From the IMG/VR virus record IMGVR_UViG_2872698443_000001: a stretch of DNA of 18,271 bases; one strand, given 5' to 3'. Every line of letters starts with the position of its first letter. Position 1 is the first letter of the stretch. A model generated the notes under the pieces. The model worked only from the letters and a program-made list of their open reading frames with translations, made no database searches and had not been told where the DNA came from. Made by a program: the position numbers and the translations under genes. Origin of the DNA: a virus (lineage: Duplodnaviria > Heunggongvirae > Uroviricota > Caudoviricetes). Below, piece after piece: positions 2,377-10,694 of this stretch.

Positions 2377-2923
2377 TGACTAGTTTTCTAAAATTGGGTA
2401 TTTTCGAGCGAGAAGCCAAAGCCCCGGAACTCAATATTAAACAACTTGCACTACTTATGTGTGGGGTAGATCCGACAGTTAAAACTGCTGATATCCCTGA
2501 GGCGAAAGTTGAAGCTTACAATATATACTATCGACAACTGAGTAGATGGTTATCAGCATCTAAATTATTTCGAGGTGGAAACTCAACAGCCTATCCCGCA
2601 GACTATATGTTTGCTCTGGCATATCCTCTTATTGATGAAGATATTACACCACAACCCATAAAGGACAGATGCCTTGCGGCGGTGGCTATAATTGCTAATC
2701 AAAACAAAGGAAAAGAGCATCTTTATGCTATGGGAGGGGATGAGCTTTTACAGGTCGGAATTGCATTGAAAAGCAGCAAACGCGGCTTGCATCGTAAAGA
2801 AGATGAAAAGGAATATAATGATAAATTAATGGGGATGCTGGTCAAGCTTATAGCACATAAGATAGGCCGGTAATGCTGCCAACTTACTGATTTAGTGTAT
2901 GATGGTGTTTTTGAGGTGCTCCA

Positions 2924-3199
2924 GTGGCTTCTGTTTCTATCAGCTGTCCCTCCTGTTCAGCTACTGACGGGGTGGTGCGTAACGGCAAAAGCACCGCCGG
3001 ACATCAGCGCTATCTCTGCTCTCACTGCCGTAAAACATGGCAACTGCAGTTCACTTACACCGCTTCTCAACCCGGTACGCACCAGAAAATCATTGATATG
3101 GCCATGAATGGCGTTGGATGCCGGGCAACTGCCCGCATTATGGGCGTTGGCCTCAACACGATTTTACGTCACTTAAAAAACTCAGGCCGCAGTCGGTAA
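2924..3199 (+). CDS. insA: IS1 InsA
   Basis: 91-aa [26 protein letters not shown]... recognised as IS1 InsA with its zinc-finger and HTH region. Confidence 0.95.
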
Positions 3200-3621
3200 C
3201 CTCGCGCATACAGCCGGGCAGTGACGTCATCGTCTGCGCGGAAATGGACGAACAGTGGGGCTATGTCGGGGCTAAATCGCGCCAGCGCTGGCTGTTTTAC
3301 GCGTATGACAGGCTCCGGAAGACGGTTGTTGCGCACGTATTCGGTGAACGCACTATGGCGACGCTGGGGCGTCTTATGAGCCTGCTGTCACCCTTTGACG
3401 TGGTGATATGGATGACGGATGGCTGGCCGCTGTATGAATTCCGCCTGAAGGGAAAGCTGCACGTAATCAGCAAGCGATATACGCAGCGAATTGAGCGGCA
3501 TAACCTGAATCTGAGGCAGCACCTGGCACGGCTGGGACGGAAGTCGCTGTCGTTCTCAAAATCGGTGGAGCTGCATGACAAAGTCATCGGGCATTATCTG
3601 AACATAAAACACTATCAATAA
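3118..3621 (+). CDS. insB: IS1 InsB (expressed as InsAB' transposase by -1 frameshift)
   Basis: 167-aa ORF recognised as IS1 InsB; overlaps insA in the -1 frame; frameshift site TTAAAAAAC at about 3173-3181. Confidence 0.9.
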
Positions 3622-3939
3622 GTTGGAGTCATTACCAGATAGGCCATTCGTTTGGCACCTCTAAAAAACCAAGCATCTCGGCTATTTTAAACGAACTATA
3701 TAAATTAGCTGATGAGGAAGGTATATCTAAAACTGGATTATCCAAATCAGCAATATATGATAAAATTCGCAAGGCATTAAATTCGATTTATTATACGGAA
3801 TGAATATTATTTTGCAGTGTTAGTGGGTATTATTTATATTTCATGTGAAAATACTAATTAATTATATTTGTTGGAGCTTTTGGCGATTCTATGATCGCCA
3901 AGGAGATTCAATTGTTATATTTGATGTTTATTACAGTTA

Positions 3940-4678: not shown

Positions 4679-5371
4679 ATGAAAAAGATTAATGCCCTCC
4701 ACGGGCAGGGATTCGCTCACCCTGTAGCCAGCCAGCACGATATTTCAGCGAACCGTAAACAGGTTATTGCCGGTGACTGGTCGCCCATTAATCGTGGTGA
4801 ATTTACGCTTGCCGATCTGGGGTTGCGCCACAACGGTAACGGGCTGGTGTGGCTGCGTTCCGGCGTGTCCGTGCATGAGGCAGACCATGATGCAGGGATA
4901 AGCGGCAAGGACAAGACCAAAGGAAGGGTTAACGGCCTTCCTTTTGAATTTGTCGGCCAGTGGCAGGAATACCCGACTAAACGCAGCTTTGCCGTTTCAG
5001 TATCTACGGAACTACGGCGCCAGTATTACCCGGACGATGCCGCATTCAGTAAGGCAATGCGTGAGGCTGGTTATGTTCCGGTGCGCACTCGCAAACTGAC
5101 CGGAAAGGATGCTCGTTTTTGGCTGTACCGTGTAACGGGCAATGATAAGGGGGTTGTCGCAGCAGAATCCGCGCCACACAAGGCTTGCGCGCCAGTTGTC
5201 CAGACCATATCTAAGCCTCATCCGTGGTTTAAGCGTGTGGCACTCGATGGTAAATGGCAGTACGTCTACGCAGATCACATCCGCTTTCTGACTAAAAAGC
5301 GTCATCGCGTCGATGGTGTTCGGGTTCAGGGGTATACCGCTGGCGGGCTGAAAGTGGAGGCTATTGTATGA
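4679..5371 (+). CDS. Hypothetical protein (230 aa)
   Basis: Long ORF co-directional with alpA; its stop overlaps the next ORF start (ATGA). No family recognised. Confidence 0.6.
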   Translation: MKKINALHGQGFAHPVASQHDISANRKQVIAGDWSPINRGEFTLADLGLRHNGNGLVWLRSGVSVHEADHDAGISGKDKTKGRVNGLPFEFVGQWQEYPTKRSFAVSVSTELRRQYYPDDAAFSKAMREAGYVPVRTRKLTGKDARFWLYRVTGNDKGVVAAESAPHKACAPVVQTISKPHPWFKRVALDGKWQYVYADHIRFLTKKRHRVDGVRVQGYTAGGLKVEAIV

Positions 5372-5723
5372 CAGGCAAAACAAAGGCGGCCATGCCGGGC
5401 CGCCTGAGTCTCAACGCTTTACTGAAACATCGCCAGATTACCAGGCTTGCCGCTGGTGGTCAAACCTTGAGCCAACGAAATCCGTACGCACAAATTAACC
5501 GCGTACGTTTAATGTACGGAGATCGAGACAAAGGCGAACAGTATTCGGGTTCATGGCAAAACAACGTTAAACGTGGTTTAGAGGCTCCGACGAAAAACGT
5601 AGAGAGCTGCGAAGATAACCAACCCTCTTTAAGAGGGGAGCCTCTGCACAACTCATTAATAGTTGCGCAAAACAGACCCTTTTTAAGAGGGGCAGTCCAC
5701 AGCATTACGGGGAGTAACCCTGT

Positions 5724-5897
5724 TCAGCCTTTTGGCTCGATGCCGCGCTTATCAAGTTCACGGCGCAAAAGGCGTTTTATCCATCCCGACTTATTATCGT
5801 CACCGTCTTCTTTCATCGCTAAAGCGAGCCGCTCTGACAGTTCTTTATCGAGTCTGAGCTGCACAACATGGCGCTCTTTATTTTCGCTTGTTGACAT
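5724..5897 (-). CDS. Ribbon-helix-helix (CopG/Arc-like) small DNA-binding protein, 58 aa, antisense to the surrounding operon
   Basis: MSTSENKERHVVQLRLDKELSERLALAMKEDGDDNKSGWIKRLLRRELDKRGIEPKG shows a beta-strand then two helices typical of RHH proteins; AGGAG Shine-Dalgarno 6 nt upstream of the ATG (reverse complement of 5895-5908). Start chosen at an internal Met of the 95-aa track ORF. Confidence 0.6.
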   Translation of the reverse strand: MSTSENKERHVVQLRLDKELSERLALAMKEDGDDNKSGWIKRLLRRELDKRGIEPKG

Positions 5898-5940
5898 TGT
5901 CAACTCCTGTGGTCTAGTCTGTAGTGGAGTTGACAATGTA
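5894..5940. promoter_or_regulatory. Perfect 14-bp inverted repeat (ACATTGTCAACTCC / GGAGTTGACAATGT) with 18-bp spacer overlapping the RHH gene start; candidate operator
   Basis: Arms at 5894-5907 and 5926-5939 are exact reverse complements; each arm contains a TTGACA hexamer and an SD-ATG arrangement. Confidence 0.5.
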
Positions 5941-6037
5941 CTACATTGCATGACTTTTAGTAAAGCAAAGCCCGGCAGTGGTGGAACACTAACCGGGCCT
6001 CTAACCACCACCGTTAGCGAAAGTAACGAGGCAGCTA

Positions 6038-6228
6038 TGAAAGATCATATCACACACCCGCAAGGGCGGAAGTCCTACATCTGGCGTTTTCTTGCACTGA
6101 GCGCCATCGGTCGCAACGTCATTCACATCACAGCTAACACTGAGCGCGAAGCCCGTGAGCAATCACCGGCTGGCTGCGTGATGGTATTCGCTGGCCGTCT
6201 ACCAGTTCAGGAGGTTCGCTATGCGTGA
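6038..6228 (+). CDS. Small hypothetical protein (63 aa), possible true 3' portion of the 286-aa track ORF
   Basis: Internal ATG at 6038 preceded by GAGG; its stop overlaps the start of the next ORF (ATG 6221, TGA 6226-6228), consistent with translational coupling. Weak evidence. Confidence 0.3.
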
Positions 6229-6415
6229 GCCAATCTGTCTGGAGCAGGCCGAATATAAATCAGCGCTGGCTTCATCACTTTACGAAACCATCCTGGAAAA
6301 AGCCTCTGCTGAATGTTCAGAAACGCTGCTGAATCTGATTTCTATTGCGTGTGATTTTAATCAGGAAATTCACCGGGCATTAATCGCCGAGCTGCACATG
6401 GGAGAGACAAAGTGA
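6221..6415 (+). CDS. Small hypothetical phage protein (64 aa)
   Basis: ORF in a chain of overlapping small genes immediately upstream of the replication gene. Confidence 0.5.
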   Translation: MREPICLEQAEYKSALASSLYETILEKASAECSETLLNLISIACDFNQEIHRALIAELHMGETK

Positions 6416-8540: not shown

Positions 8541-8570
8541 AGGCGGGGAAAATTAAAAGTAATGGGATAA

Positions 8571-8799
8571 GTGTTCACCACTGTTCACCATGTATAAAAA
8601 TCATTAAATAACAATATGTTAATGGGTGAACACTTTTTTATGAAGTGTTCACCAAGTATTCACCAGTTCACCTTTAAAGGGCTTTTCTTTTAAAAGGTGA
8701 AGGGTTAAGGTGAACACTAGTGAATACTTAAAATCATAGTCTTCACCCTGTAACCGAATGAATTTAAATAGGAAAAATGCAAAGGTGAACAGGTGAACA
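8571..8799. repeat. Origin-type iteron array: about 10 copies of TGTTCACC / GGTGAACA in both orientations (P4 ori-like)
   Basis: Copies at about 8572, 8582, 8625 (rc), 8646, 8657 (variant), 8665 (variant), 8709 (rc), 8720 (rc variant), 8784 (rc) and 8791 (rc), in AT-rich DNA just downstream of the helicase gene. Confidence 0.8.
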
Positions 8800-9136: not shown

Positions 9137-9658
9137 TTAACGATGTAATTCATTAATTTTGTCGCTGACGTTTTTTTTCCTTAACTCATTCAAGAAAAAA
9201 TAATTAACAAGTATCACCCTAAATATCGCTGCGAATTGCGCGATAGCCAAGAAAGCTACAAATGTAAAATTAAGGTATTTAACATAAGGGATATAGTTAA
9301 CATCAACCAGGCCTTTAAGTAAAGGGGCGAAGAATTGTATAAGAAGAACAGCCATTAATACAACAGCTGATACCATGACGATCTCAACTAATTCGCTTAA
9401 ATAATTAGCATCTTTATGTGATTCCTTCCCCTCGGCTTTATTTGATTGAGGTGAGTCCCTCTTATTTAATATTCTCGCCATCGCCCTTGGATAAATAATT
9501 GCTATCCAGGCGCCTATAATGGCAAATATTATAGATGAAATATTAAGCAGGGCACCTAGCGTGTCCTTGTAATCATTATAGCCAAGCGTTGTTATTCGGC
9601 CTCTAAATATAATGGCCATCAAGGCTGCTATAAGCACATAAATTATATATTTTATCAT
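9137..9658 (-). CDS. Small integral membrane protein with four predicted transmembrane helices (173 aa); second gene of cargo operon
   Basis: Four hydrophobic stretches (about residues 4-18, 34-56, 88-113, 129-153) separated by charged loops; its start is 1 nt after the upstream gene's stop (TGA-C-ATG on the minus strand); visibly AT-rich. Confidence 0.75.
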   Translation of the reverse strand: MIKYIIYVLIAALMAIIFRGRITTLGYNDYKDTLGALLNISSIIFAIIGAWIAIIYPRAMARILNKRDSPQSNKAEGKESHKDANYLSELVEIVMVSAVVLMAVLLIQFFAPLLKGLVDVNYIPYVKYLNFTFVAFLAIAQFAAIFRVILVNYFFLNELRKKNVSDKINELHR

Positions 9659-9659
9659 G

Positions 9660-10694
9660 TCACCCCCCTGCTGGTGGTGTCTTCATTTTGTTTAACAACT
9701 CTGCTCTGCGTTTTATTATAGCAGATAACAGTCTTTCTGGAGCTATTATGTGGTTATCTTTTCGCCGAACATTTAGCTCGGTTTCAAAAGCAACATTTGC
9801 ACCGCTAAGCCAGATAGATTTCCCGTCACTATATTTGAAGCCAACATTCCTTATAGGTGAGCTATTACCTAACTCATTATAGTTTTTAATAATTAATTTT
9901 AGCTGTGATTCTGTTGGTTTGAATTCCATCTCGTGAAAGATCGTTCTTTCCTGTGTGTTTGCTGGTGTGTTTTTTAACAGGCCAGAAAAAACTCTTTCAA
10001 TTATTTTTCTATCATCTGGGGCTAAATAAGTTATTTTTTCTCTTTTTAATATCTTTGTGATTCTGTGAATGTTATTAATTAACTCTGCCTGAACCTCATC
10101 ATATTTCATTCCTACAGCATAAAATTTAGGGTTTAATTTTTCTGAATCAGAGTTTTTCTTAGCATCAGCGGAAAAGCCAATTACTTTATCATCATTATCG
10201 AGCACGCGATATGGGGATTTGTTTGCAAGATATCCATTGAGATAGTTATCAAGATTACCCTTTCCCATTAGAGAGTGTTCAAATTTGATTGAAGCAAAAG
10301 CATTTTCATCAGGAATGAACCAAAAGTAACAAGGAAATCCTGGAATAGCCTTATCGACATCAAATCCAGTGGTTAACATATCCACTTTACCGGGTTTAGC
10401 TAGCGGTGGCATACCATATATCACCCCACTATCATTGGGAACCTCTGCCCAAAGAGTTAAAAGGTGGTCTCCGTACTGCCTGTCTGACGCCAAACCACAA
10501 AAATAGGTATTGCGGATGTCCTCTTCCTTTTCGGCTTGGTAGGTAAGAGTATTGATGAACTCTCTTCCATCAGAAGCCCAACCTTTCAGTTTAAGCAATG
10601 TATCAGTGGTGTTGCCTAAGTCTGGTTTTTTAGAGCCGTGCTTGTAATATCCGCATCTATTGATATCAAAAAACTTCAGTTTTGCAGTTAGCAT
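9660..10694 (-). CDS. Hypothetical soluble protein (344 aa); first gene of cargo operon, candidate sensor or effector of a defence system
   Basis: Long ORF with a good RBS (AAAGGAAAATAA-ATG); visibly AT-rich compared with the flanking capsid and replication genes; no nucleotidyltransferase, ATPase or other motif recognised by eye. Confidence 0.75.
   Translation of the reverse strand: MLTAKLKFFDINRCGYYKHGSKKPDLGNTTDTLLKLKGWASDGREFINTLTYQAEKEEDIRNTYFCGLASDRQYGDHLLTLWAEVPNDSGVIYGMPPLAKPGKVDMLTTGFDVDKAIPGFPCYFWFIPDENAFASIKFEHSLMGKGNLDNYLNGYLANKSPYRVLDNDDKVIGFSADAKKNSDSEKLNPKFYAVGMKYDEVQAELINNIHRITKILKREKITYLAPDDRKIIERVFSGLLKNTPANTQERTIFHEMEFKPTESQLKLIIKNYNELGNSSPIRNVGFKYSDGKSIWLSGANVAFETELNVRRKDNHIIAPERLLSAIIKRRAELLNKMKTPPAGG

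Follow-up and report, generated by a model that had tools for sequence, protein, structure and literature searches.

The 18,271-nt stretch of DNA analysed here (the window) carries, in order, genes for an integrase, AlpA and a 230-aa protein, the interval at 5368–6228, and genes for a primase, capsid, protease, portal, connectors, HNH endonuclease and terminase. With int, alpA and primase joined by its own set from capsid to terminase, and with tail and lysis genes absent, the window is by gene content a capsid-forming PICI (cf-PICI)-type phage satellite of E. coli, an assignment based on the annotation of an identical E. coli island and of vB_KppS-Ant. A profile search of the window matched AlpA to PF05930 and also matched DUF4222. 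The interval itself is 100% identical to an E. coli chromosomal island, with strains OW1E2 and TUM9754 having the same sequence there, and contains the following features.

5368–6228, plus strand: long 'eta-like' open reading frame (ORF) of 286 aa with an ATG start (ORF list and translation).
5384–5405, minus strand: strong intrinsic terminator at the boundary with the 230-aa gene (8-bp stem with 7 G-C pairs, then UUUGUUUUG).
5623–5637, minus strand: hairpin A (CCCTCTTTAAGAGGG), a second terminator-like site (terminator scan; conserved).
5645–5723, strand ambiguous: conserved hairpins B (5645–5670) and D (5699–5723).
5677–5691, minus strand: hairpin C, the likely terminator of the ribbon-helix-helix (RHH) transcript, followed on the minus strand by UCUGUUUUG.
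5724–5897, minus strand: RHH gene of 57 aa, a candidate repressor (translation, homologues, fold, selection).
5891–5920, plus strand: predicted promoter of the icd-primase operon (-35 TTGACA 5891–5896, 18-nt spacer, -10 TAGTCT 5915–5920).
5894–5907: left arm of a perfect 14-bp inverted repeat, with a CATTG box at 5895–5899.
5926–5939: right arm of the same repeat, containing CAATG at 5934–5938.
5935–5964, minus strand: predicted RHH promoter (-35 TTTACT 5959–5964, 18-nt spacer, -10 TACATT 5935–5940).
5962–6038 (about), minus strand: predicted small conserved antisense RNA of ~77 nt (covariation, strand test, covariance model).
6037–6228, plus strand: Icd/Kil-like gene (icd) of 63 aa, which forms the 3' end of the long ORF and shares its frame (NF033153, RefSeq).
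6045–6050, minus strand: -10 element of the predicted antisense-RNA promoter, TATGAT with TGA ahead (an extended -10), inside icd codons 3–5.

The 286-aa ORF is start-stop coupled to the preceding 230-aa gene through an ATGA overlap at 5368–5371, and its end overlaps the start of the next gene (ATGCGTGA), so that it is coupled downstream too; it is probably translated only from transcripts initiated upstream. The nested icd has its own ribosome-binding site (GAGG, 6028–6031), matches the NF033153 phage_ICD_like model (E 2e-17, 62.9 bits) and is annotated in RefSeq as Icd-like (WP_024188218); in every element compared it is the first gene of the operon, ahead of primase. The 65-aa kil ORF of P4 matches the same NF033153 model with 76 bits, whereas the window Icd and P4 Kil gave no BLASTP alignment, so it is the shared HMM alone that links the two proteins. 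The locus thus has an ORF of the Kil/Icd family nested in frame within a longer, start-stop-coupled ORF, as in the eta/kil arrangement of P4, except that the upstream partner is the 230-aa gene and not alpA.

The initial annotation had regarded the 286-aa ORF as probably spurious, and the strong form of that view, in which antisense translation accounts for the frame entirely and nothing but the RHH gene and its palindrome matters, has several points in its favour. The N-terminal 223 aa found no family match in profile searches, the third codon positions of the frame coincide with those of the RHH gene, a naturally stop-poor configuration, and amino-acid identity among relatives merely follows nucleotide identity; this last result indicates that the frame is held open while its protein sequence is not conserved. 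However, the frame is also open across a ~350-nt non-coding block, an intergenic region and an RNA gene, and its C-terminal part is a genuine gene. Over 73 distinct contexts the open stretch in frame into icd has a median of 244 codons and reaches at least 100 in 62 of them, whereas the other two frames upstream of icd have medians of only 5 and 7 codons. This opening is retained irrespective of which unrelated gene underlies it on the minus strand, and the same was seen in genome loci. Indels in relatives are multiples of three, and an overlap between the start of the frame and the preceding stop codon recurs in elements whose upstream genes differ (1 nt in the L002 locus). We consider a pure artefact very improbable: on these sequence comparisons the 286-aa ORF is the conserved counterpart of P4 eta/kil and no accident. 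In PMC10111431 (citing Forti et al. 1999), eta and kil are described as nested, and translation of the long eta frame as preventing transcription termination. By analogy, the conservation of the open frame suggests that translation of the long ORF here may prevent Rho-dependent termination.

The minus-strand gene beneath this frame encodes a protein of 57 aa plus a stop codon (MSTSENKERHVVQLRLDKELSERLALAMKEDGDDNKSGWIKRLLRRELDKRGIEPKG), not 58 aa as first annotated; the assignment as an RHH protein and the strong ribosome-binding site both hold, the latter being a Shine-Dalgarno AGGAG at 5904–5908, 6 nt ahead of the ATG. The product (WP_162842356) is annotated in RefSeq as 'hypothetical protein'. 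It has the beta-strand-helix-helix fold of the RHH superfamily, and comparison with relatives revealed strong purifying selection. It did not reach threshold against curated RHH models (PF01402, 14 bits against a cut-off of 20.5); sub-threshold matches were to the NikR N-terminal model (E 0.035) and the Arc-like phrog_228 (E 0.034), and its alignment profile met chance matches only among PDB sequences. Homologues, alignment, fold and selection agree, and the RHH gene is real. With ~8 residues past helix B the protein is a bare DNA-binding module and hence has no toxin-binding tail. It has no match to PF05534 (HicB), whose C-terminal RHH region only the L002 allele matched, and no HicA gene lies nearby, so it does not belong to a HicAB pair. 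Otherwise near-identical elements harbour different cassettes in the RHH slot. The remaining minus-strand genes of the element are solely a two-gene candidate defence cassette (9137–10694), which bears out the earlier statement that the RHH gene is the only regulator-like gene opposing the replication genes.

Downstream of the RHH gene, terminators were found on the minus strand only. The stem of hairpin C is kept in relatives via compensatory changes (CCCCUCUU/AAGAGGGG and CCCCGA/UCGGGG, each then followed by UUGUUUUG), and the terminator at 5384–5405 is predicted to halt minus-strand read-through. Hairpin B shows a compensatory AAC/GTT to GGG/CCT change. A protein-coding role under selection was rejected for the conserved block at 5372–5723, in which the protein is poorly conserved and the sequence is a mosaic of modules; regarded as one structured RNA, the block folds on both strands, with a mixed strand signal apart from the terminator-like hairpins. 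Pairing of 5573–5589 (plus strand) with the icd leader at 5992–6008, in the manner of P4 seqA/B/C, was likewise rejected, since in a larger set three elements were consistent with it and six were not. At these sites two relatives carry a change from U-A to C-G that had looked compensatory.

The arms at 5894–5907 and 5926–5939 are complementary at 14 of 14 positions and lie 18 nt apart, or about three helical turns from centre to centre, confirming the perfect repeat described at the RHH start. No other perfect inverted repeat in the 18.3-kb window combines arms of 12 nt or more with a loop of 3–60 nt; arms of 14 nt or longer arose in 0 of 100 simple shuffles, and the analytic expectation is 0.004. 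The TTGACA hexamers noted earlier are also present, on the plus strand at 5891–5896 and 5930–5935 and as TGTCAA at 5898–5903. The left arm overlaps the last 3 nt of the icd promoter -35, the adjoining spacer and the RHH start codon, and the right arm lies immediately downstream of the icd -10 and overlaps the -10 of the RHH promoter. The icd -35 is encoded in RHH codons ATG-TCA-A. It is this first TTGACA, overlapping the RHH start codon, that is conserved among relatives; the second (5930–5935) was rejected as the icd -35, having no usable -10 after it and no conservation in relatives. The window -10, TAGTCT, is weak (3 of 6 positions), and a promoter scan of the window itself called no promoter in the interval. 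At the same site in relatives, the scan found TTGACA-16-TATATT (11 of 12 matches) on the icd strand, overlapping the RHH start codon, and nearly all alleles have TTGAC[AG] or TTGAAG at the -35. For the RHH promoter, the orthologous site in the L013 locus reads TTTACA-18-TACATT (9 of 12, promoter scan), and GTACATTG is conserved among relatives.

The repeat is widely conserved only in a 6-bp core, and the 14-bp extension is lineage-specific. The spacing of the distal ACATTG and the start-codon CAATGT is fixed in most of the 15 loci with the window-type RHH family, and that of the CATTG/CAATG boxes is constant across genera. The CAATG at 5934–5938 additionally pairs with CATTG at 5944–5948, forming a conserved CAATG-N5-CATTG palindrome (5934–5948). 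Unrelated RHH-like alleles of the YlcI/YnfO or HicB type have repeats of their own, placed directly after the -35 and after the -10 with a spacing of ~30–33 bp. Where alleles share a beta-strand they also share an operator core; beta-strand similarity correlates with operator similarity with a rho of 0.32, reached in 9 of 1000 permutations, against 0.21 for the rest of the protein, a modest correlation that is confounded by relatedness. Allele-specific repeats in the same geometry are what would be expected of immunity operators.

The repeat might instead function as an RNA hairpin that buries the RHH Shine-Dalgarno and AUG in minus-strand transcripts from upstream of 5939, such as read-through of the antisense-RNA terminator, so that translation of the RHH protein would be confined to transcripts from the RHH promoter. 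The proximal arm does include the Shine-Dalgarno and start codon, and in two lineages the arms were lengthened to 11–14 bp by differing sequences (ACATTGTCAAC..GTTGACAATGT versus ACATTGGTGTT..AACACCAATGT), changed jointly on both sides. However, the predicted RHH promoter (-10 at 5935–5940) leaves most of the distal arm untranscribed, most relatives retain merely 6–8 bp, and the repeats of the unrelated alleles, in the same geometry, are often direct and so cannot form hairpins. We therefore judge an RNA hairpin in place of an operator unlikely. In the L020 locus, the only pairing open to the 14th repeat position is a U·G wobble on the minus strand, which hints at a role at the RNA level. The suggestion of an autoregulated repressor or immunity-like switch stands as the best reading, with the repeat at an operator position and the alleles carrying repeats of their own, but the repeat relates to the icd promoter differently from what was first pictured, in that the RHH start codon partly coincides with the -35 and the -10 lies between the two arms.

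A further element, not remarked on in the initial annotation and not listed in Rfam, lies between the RHH promoter and icd. This predicted ~77-nt minus-strand RNA lies antisense to the 5' leader, Shine-Dalgarno and start codon of icd, and consists of a 5' hairpin (6012–6028), a conserved linker (GUGGUUAGA, 6000–6008), a terminator hairpin (5970–5998) and a U-rich tail (5962–5969). Analysis with RNAalifold and pair counts showed 96.7% of cells paired and compensatory changes in 14 of 22 pairs, equalled by none of 500 shuffles, and the pairing result was repeated on 44 distinct sequences. The minus strand had 932 of 966 cells paired, including 175 G·U, against 760 of 966 with 3 G·U for the plus strand. 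A covariance model matched 77 of 79 icd-like loci, each time abutting the icd ATG, and the minimum free energy is -34.5 kcal/mol (z -3.8). In all 33 distinct upstream sequences compared, a TAnnnT hexamer occupies the -10 position of the predicted promoter. The -11 A of this hexamer coincides with the third base of an icd His codon that is invariably CAT, and no -35 is recognisable. The U-tail is interrupted (UUUGCUUU), so what looks like a separate RNA could be an attenuator within an extended RHH leader. Taken together, these features make the antisense RNA a candidate layer of an immunity switch. Searches with Rfam found no family at the gathering threshold in the whole window; in E-value mode (up to 10) over 5300–6300 they returned only noise and a full-length but weak match to SymR (RF01809; 22.4 bits, E 0.12, where the gathering score is 61). 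Membership of SymR, C4 and IsrK was rejected, as none reaches its Rfam threshold.

The resemblance to SymR, which extends to placement relative to the start codon, raises the question of an addiction module that stabilises the island, with the Icd/Kil protein as toxin and the RHH protein (type II) and/or the antisense RNA (type I) as antitoxin. Icd-like proteins are cell-division inhibitors (NF033153), and a related RHH allele, the one with the PF05534 match, is annotated as a HicB-family antitoxin. Nevertheless, the lack of a toxin-binding tail and of a HicA partner argues against such a module, as do the SymR score, the divergent orientation of the RHH gene, which is not co-transcribed with icd, the presence of allele-specific repeats on the promoter of the entire replication operon, and the constant place of icd at the head of the primase operon. 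Toxin–antitoxin function appears quite unlikely to be what this locus provides.

We instead favour, with some reservation, the view that the interval is the regulatory core of the satellite, in which a two-layer immunity switch of repressor and antisense RNA is laid over a P4-like eta/kil arrangement; all five steps of the model are inferred from sequence anatomy and comparative data. The 57-aa RHH protein would bind the CAATG-containing repeats as a dimer of dimers, and since the arms bracket the icd-primase -10 and overlap the RHH -10, binding should both silence the replication operon and autoregulate the repressor. The antisense RNA would be made constitutively, beginning at about the icd start codon and terminating just before the RHH promoter, and would pair with the icd leader, Shine-Dalgarno and AUG to block translation of escape transcripts. 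With translation blocked, Rho would, by analogy with P4, be able to terminate such a transcript ahead of the primase gene. On induction, a helper phage would turn on AlpA, and transcription would enter via alpA and the 230-aa gene. Ribosomes would then pass by start-stop coupling into the 286-aa frame and translate through the target of the antisense RNA, making read-through independent of the icd ribosome-binding site, and the same upstream transcription would meet the RHH gene head-on and should silence it. Differing RHH/operator alleles in one slot, satellite by satellite, would set immunity specificity. By analogy, the model borrows from P4 both its Rho dependence and the requirement that the long frame be translated.

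More tentatively, and with somewhat less than even confidence, we propose this module as the long-sought system by which Gram-negative PICIs and cf-PICIs achieve repression and immunity, with RHH-like repressors, antisense RNA and an eta-like frame defining heteroimmunity groups. Tiny allele-specific RHH-like repressors (the window family, YlcI/YnfO and HicB-like) would act on matching operators at the icd-primase promoter; a near-universal cis-antisense RNA would take the place of the P4 CI RNA; and the eta-like frame, overprinting both repressor and RNA, would allow AlpA-driven translated transcripts to override the block. A literature search found no description of small minus-strand genes or of an antisense RNA at icd. 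If correct, the proposal supplies a concrete, testable off-switch for widespread satellites, in which the cassette sets immunity specificity, explaining the sharp cassette differences between otherwise identical elements. The ~77-nt RNA would be a family new to Rfam, long ORFs annotated 'hypothetical protein', such as the 324-aa ORF of vB_KppS-Ant, would be eta-like read-through frames and not ordinary proteins, and the labels 'HicB antitoxin' and 'YlcI/YnfO' on small genes would mask likely repressors. Satellites are under consideration as delivery vehicles, which gives their control circuits practical interest.

Comparison with known systems places the module among several partial parallels. 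The immI region of P22 has the RHH repressors Mnt and Arc, opposed Pant and Pmnt promoters and the sar antisense RNA. The present locus differs in having one RHH gene only and in being overprinted throughout by a long sense ORF; its operon consists of Icd/Kil and primase and not of an antirepressor, and there is no sequence homology. In immI of P1 and P7, which comprises c4 RNA, icd and ant, the RNA blocks translation of icd and thereby expression of the genes behind it. The shared features are an RNA that acts, or here is proposed to act, on icd translation and an Icd-family protein as first gene, whereas c4 lies upstream on the same strand and acts via short complementary loops, and Rfam C4 is unmatched here. 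The c4 RNA has been described (PMC12197685). A candidate repressor divergent from, and facing, the satellite excision and replication operon recalls Stl/Rpr of Gram-positive PICIs, but Stl repressors are large, of the helix-turn-helix type, and are relieved by proteins of the helper phage (PMC6092414), whereas we predict a 57-aa RHH protein with an antisense RNA and propose induction via the activator AlpA. SymE/SymR provides a ~77-nt two-hairpin antisense RNA that starts a few nt from the start codon of its target; by its score the window RNA is no member of that family, and it would target the gene that opens a replication operon.

The closest parallel is P4. A sense CI RNA of the P4 type with seqA and seqC targets was not found: there was no Rfam C4/CI match in the window or in 5300–6300, the interval showed no BLASTN similarity to the immunity region of P4, and the covariance model of the antisense RNA had no match in P4. 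The likeness is instead one of architecture. On the P4 map summarised in PMC10111431, both elements have, in order, an AlpA/Vis-type regulator, a long ORF with a nested in-frame Kil/Icd-like ORF, small genes and primase; the long ORF is start-stop coupled upstream, and an internal promoter serves the short ORF. The icd promoter would be the analogue of the P4 PLE promoter, kil and the window icd match the same HMM, and in each case an RNA acts, or is proposed to act, on the kil/icd translation start. PMC10111431 also describes the P4 immunity factor as a sense-strand RNA that is processed from the leader and pairs with seqA and seqC. The satellite studied here differs in placing a 230-aa gene between alpA and the long ORF and, where P4 lacks both the RHH gene and this RNA, in having a predicted cis-encoded antisense RNA and a candidate protein repressor gene that runs antisense within the long ORF.

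The minus-strand gene at 5724-5897 is a real gene whose product is predicted to adopt a ribbon-helix-helix (RHH) fold. Its coordinates in the initial annotation were confirmed, but the protein has 57 residues rather than the 58 claimed. A search of a large database returned 102 homologues of 56–60 aa with 72–98% identity, from taxa including Klebsiella, Citrobacter, Morganella, Serratia, Yersinia, Pectobacterium, Xenorhabdus, Photorhabdus and Regiella, and their alignment has an invariant core (VVQLRLD..L..RL..AM.EDGDDNK.GWIKRLL). Across 12 loci, the amino-acid identity of the gene (72–93%) is far above its nucleotide identity (61–82%) and dN/dS is at most 0.08, with dS saturated; in the overlapping plus frame of these loci, amino-acid identity equals nucleotide identity. 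Single-sequence HMM matches of the protein were exclusively to RHH families, every one below threshold. In Tenebrionibacter, Kosakonia and an Enterobacteriaceae MAG, two tandem RHH paralogues, 43–53% identical to each other, take the place of one (L017 3801-4162, L021 3713-4165 and L018 2450-2811).

Features around the RHH gene (window positions).
5368-6228, plus strand: 286-aa, eta-like open reading frame
5372-5723: conserved block
5724-5897, minus strand: RHH gene, candidate repressor
5891-5896 (TTGACA) and 5915-5920 (weak TAGTCT), plus strand: predicted icd promoter, equivalent of the relatives' site
5894-5907 and 5926-5939: arms of the inverted repeat
5959-5964 (TTTACT) and 5935-5940 (TACATT), minus strand: predicted RHH promoter, equivalent of the relatives' site
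about 5962-6038, minus strand: predicted antisense RNA element
6037-6228, plus strand: icd, an Icd/Kil-like gene

The inverted repeat was found where first reported: its arms are complementary at 14 of 14 positions, and 18 nt separate them. For loops of 3–60 nt, the window has no other perfect inverted repeat whose arms reach 12 nt; 0.004 repeats with 14-nt arms are expected, and none of 100 shuffles yielded one. Relatives that share this RHH family carry TTGACA-16-TATATT on the plus (icd) strand (scanning-tool score 11 of 12), with its TTGACA overlapping the start codon of the RHH gene (ATG TCA A), and TTTACA-18-TACATT on the RHH strand. The scanning tool called neither promoter in the window. 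From the predicted promoter positions, the left arm covers the −35 and spacer of the icd promoter, and the right arm covers the start region of that promoter together with the RHH −10. In most of 15 loci compared, the distal ACATTG and the CAATGT at the start codon lie in a constant 45-nt register, and CAATG-N5-CATTG palindromes are common; different sequences lengthen the arms to 11–14 bp, TCAAC(TCC) in one lineage and GTGTT in a second.

We read the repeat as a predicted operator chiefly because of allele swapping in the slot occupied by the small minus-strand gene. The flanks of the interval in vB_KppS-Ant and FDAARGOS_1283 are near-identical to those in the window, and the slots of these two elements hold unrelated small minus-strand genes of the DUF3950/YlcI-YnfO and HicB types, with intergenic DNA that is also unrelated to that of the window. 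A YlcI/YnfO-family gene occupies the slot in most E. coli PICIs. In 24 distinct alleles of this type, a TG-N7-CAC(C) motif directly follows the −35 (TTGAC[AG]/TTGAAG), recurs after the −10 and usually appears once more near the small gene, and alleles with an equal predicted β-strand have a common motif core.

Predicted β-strands of YlcI/YnfO-type alleles and their motif cores.
QTVAARV/QTIAARV: TGTT[TC]AACACC
KRIDARV: TGTCCCACAC
QKLQ[AT]RA: TGGATTCCAC

The β-strand correlates with the operator motif at rho 0.32, a value reached by 9 of 1000 permutations, against 0.21 for the rest of the protein. HicB-type alleles show the same geometry with 13–14-bp repeats, inverted or direct, that lie 30–33 bp apart. 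Such a pattern is what would be expected of repressor–operator immunity cassettes. Some YlcI/YnfO-type slot proteins (L097, L102, L081, L062) have 101 aa; in these, a further helical stretch of ~40 aa (..ARRQAEGSGENPLVSSLDALAQVEKIG..) is inserted ahead of the basic C-terminus, possibly as an added oligomerisation or sensor module.

The 286-aa plus-strand frame has the coordinates originally assigned, but it is not the probably spurious ORF it was taken for, as icd lies at its end and the frame is kept open across contexts. Its last 63 codons are an Icd-like gene (NF033153) with its own ribosome-binding site. For 73 distinct contexts, drawn from IMG/VR and E. coli, the open stretch 5′ of the icd ATG was measured; its median was 244 codons in the icd frame (at least 100 codons in 62 of 73) and 5 and 7 codons in the two other frames. 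Nine of the contexts lacking an icd frame of at least 100 codons carry a long frame shifted by one base. The frame stays open whichever minus-strand gene underlies it, and indels among relatives are multiples of three. The stop codon of the preceding gene overlaps the frame's start ATG in the window (as ATGA) and also in one element whose upstream gene is a different one, and the frame's own stop overlaps the start of the following gene. Public records disagree on the eta-like frame: in vB_KppS-Ant it is a 324-aa 'hypothetical protein' (L003 8578-9552), and in an E. coli genome it is a 134-aa 'Icd-like protein' overlapping the start of the YlcI/YnfO gene (L026 2369-2773). The old 137-aa 'cI' ORF of the P4 record and the 324-aa ORF of vB_KppS-Ant are the same kind of annotation artefact.

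The block at 5372-5723 is 82–100% identical in many IMG/VR satellites, whatever cassette is present. It is a mosaic of shuffled short modules (at about block positions 1-98, 96-154, 164-267, 243-275 and 320-352, in the window and L027-L060) that recur, sometimes twice, in combinations that differ from satellite to satellite. On the minus strand, two hairpins of the block run into stretches of U, and compensatory changes preserve their stems; both probably terminate the RHH transcript. A scan found a strong minus-only terminator at 5384-5405, and hairpins B and D are also present in the interval besides the terminator-like ones.

The stretch from the RHH promoter to the icd ATG contains a hairpin–linker–hairpin element common to all relatives. 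RNAalifold analysis of 18 sequences gave 22 pairs, 14 with compensatory changes, and 96.7% of cells paired, a level reached by none of 500 shuffles (slid controls, 30–49%); 44 distinct sequences gave the same figures. A covariance model built from the 18 sequences matched 77 of 79 further icd-like loci at 43–87 bits, always on the strand opposite icd and ending at the icd ATG; P4 gave no match to it. Pairing holds in 932 of 966 cells on the minus strand, including 175 G·U pairs, against 760 of 966 and 3 G·U pairs on the plus strand, which clearly points to the minus strand as that of the RNA. The 3′ hairpin is wholly variable in sequence, always precedes a U-rich tail and was flagged as a terminator by the scanning tool in L008. 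All of 33 distinct sequences have a TAnnnT box 7 nt upstream of the 5′ end of the model, and its −11 A falls on the third position of a His codon, invariably CAT. Folding of the window copy gives −34.5 kcal/mol (z −3.8). No Rfam family matched the RNA at threshold, the best hit being a 22-bit SymR-like alignment. In L062 and L076, one satellite holds two tandem copies (about 676-759, 1421-1503), each beside its own small RHH-like gene and icd-like start, and in L062 an in-frame open stretch passes through both.

Chromosomal islands of several E. coli genomes match the interval 5300-6300 at 100% identity, and in strain OW1E2 the island adjoins yhdJ. The annotated order of genes in that island is tyrosine integrase, a hypothetical gene, an AlpA-type regulator and a 230-aa hypothetical gene; next, a hypothetical gene of 57 aa on the minus strand, an Icd-like gene, three small genes and a primase; and finally two minus-strand genes followed by capsid, prohead protease, portal, head closure, connector and HNH genes. 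Family scans confirmed AlpA (PF05930), DUF4222 and IS1 in the window, and the induced 'phage' vB_KppS-Ant has the backbone of the window island plus terminase genes. Judged by gene content, which matches that of capsid-forming PICIs (bioRxiv 10.1101/2022.09.08.507074), the window element is a capsid-forming PICI. The IS1 element (768 bp, 2869-3636, with a 9-bp target duplication) splits a 216-aa gene after the integrase and is missing from the otherwise near-identical OW1E2 island. Between the primase and capsid genes, a low-GC (37%) two-gene minus-strand cassette at 9137-10694 matches the PADLOC candidate defence system PDC-M18 (A, E 2e-71; B, E 8e-23), with no Pfam domains in its genes, and is likely anti-phage cargo of the satellite. 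Just 3′ of the primase gene, AAGTGTTCACC occurs three times, at 8569-8579, 8625-8635 and 8643-8653 (direct, inverted, direct), and may represent a replication origin or iterons.

The anatomy of the interval fits a proposed two-layer switch of repressor and antisense RNA. In the quiescent state, the protein repressor and the antisense RNA would together hold the operon off, and upon induction, AlpA-driven, translated transcription would override both layers. In Gram-negative PICIs, AlpA is an activator and the presence of a global repressor is unclear (PMC6092414); our literature search found no description of the small minus-strand genes or of the antisense RNA. In P4, a 65-aa kil ORF matches the same Icd-like HMM as the window icd and is nested in the longer eta frame, exactly as in the window, with eta beginning at the stop codon of the AlpA homologue vis. 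A passage of PMC10111431, citing Forti et al. 1999, describes translation of full-length eta as confined to expression from the upstream late promoter and as preventing termination, which lets the downstream genes be reached. The P4 immunity region has the same eta/kil logic as the window, but its CI RNA is sense and a protein repressor is absent. The closest known systems also include P22 immI, with RHH repressors at opposed promoters and the sar antisense RNA, and P1 immI, in which the c4 RNA lies upstream of icd. As none of the defining RNA families was matched, the window system is not a member of these systems and is, judged by its sequence, a new variant beside the immunity regions of P4, P22 and P1.
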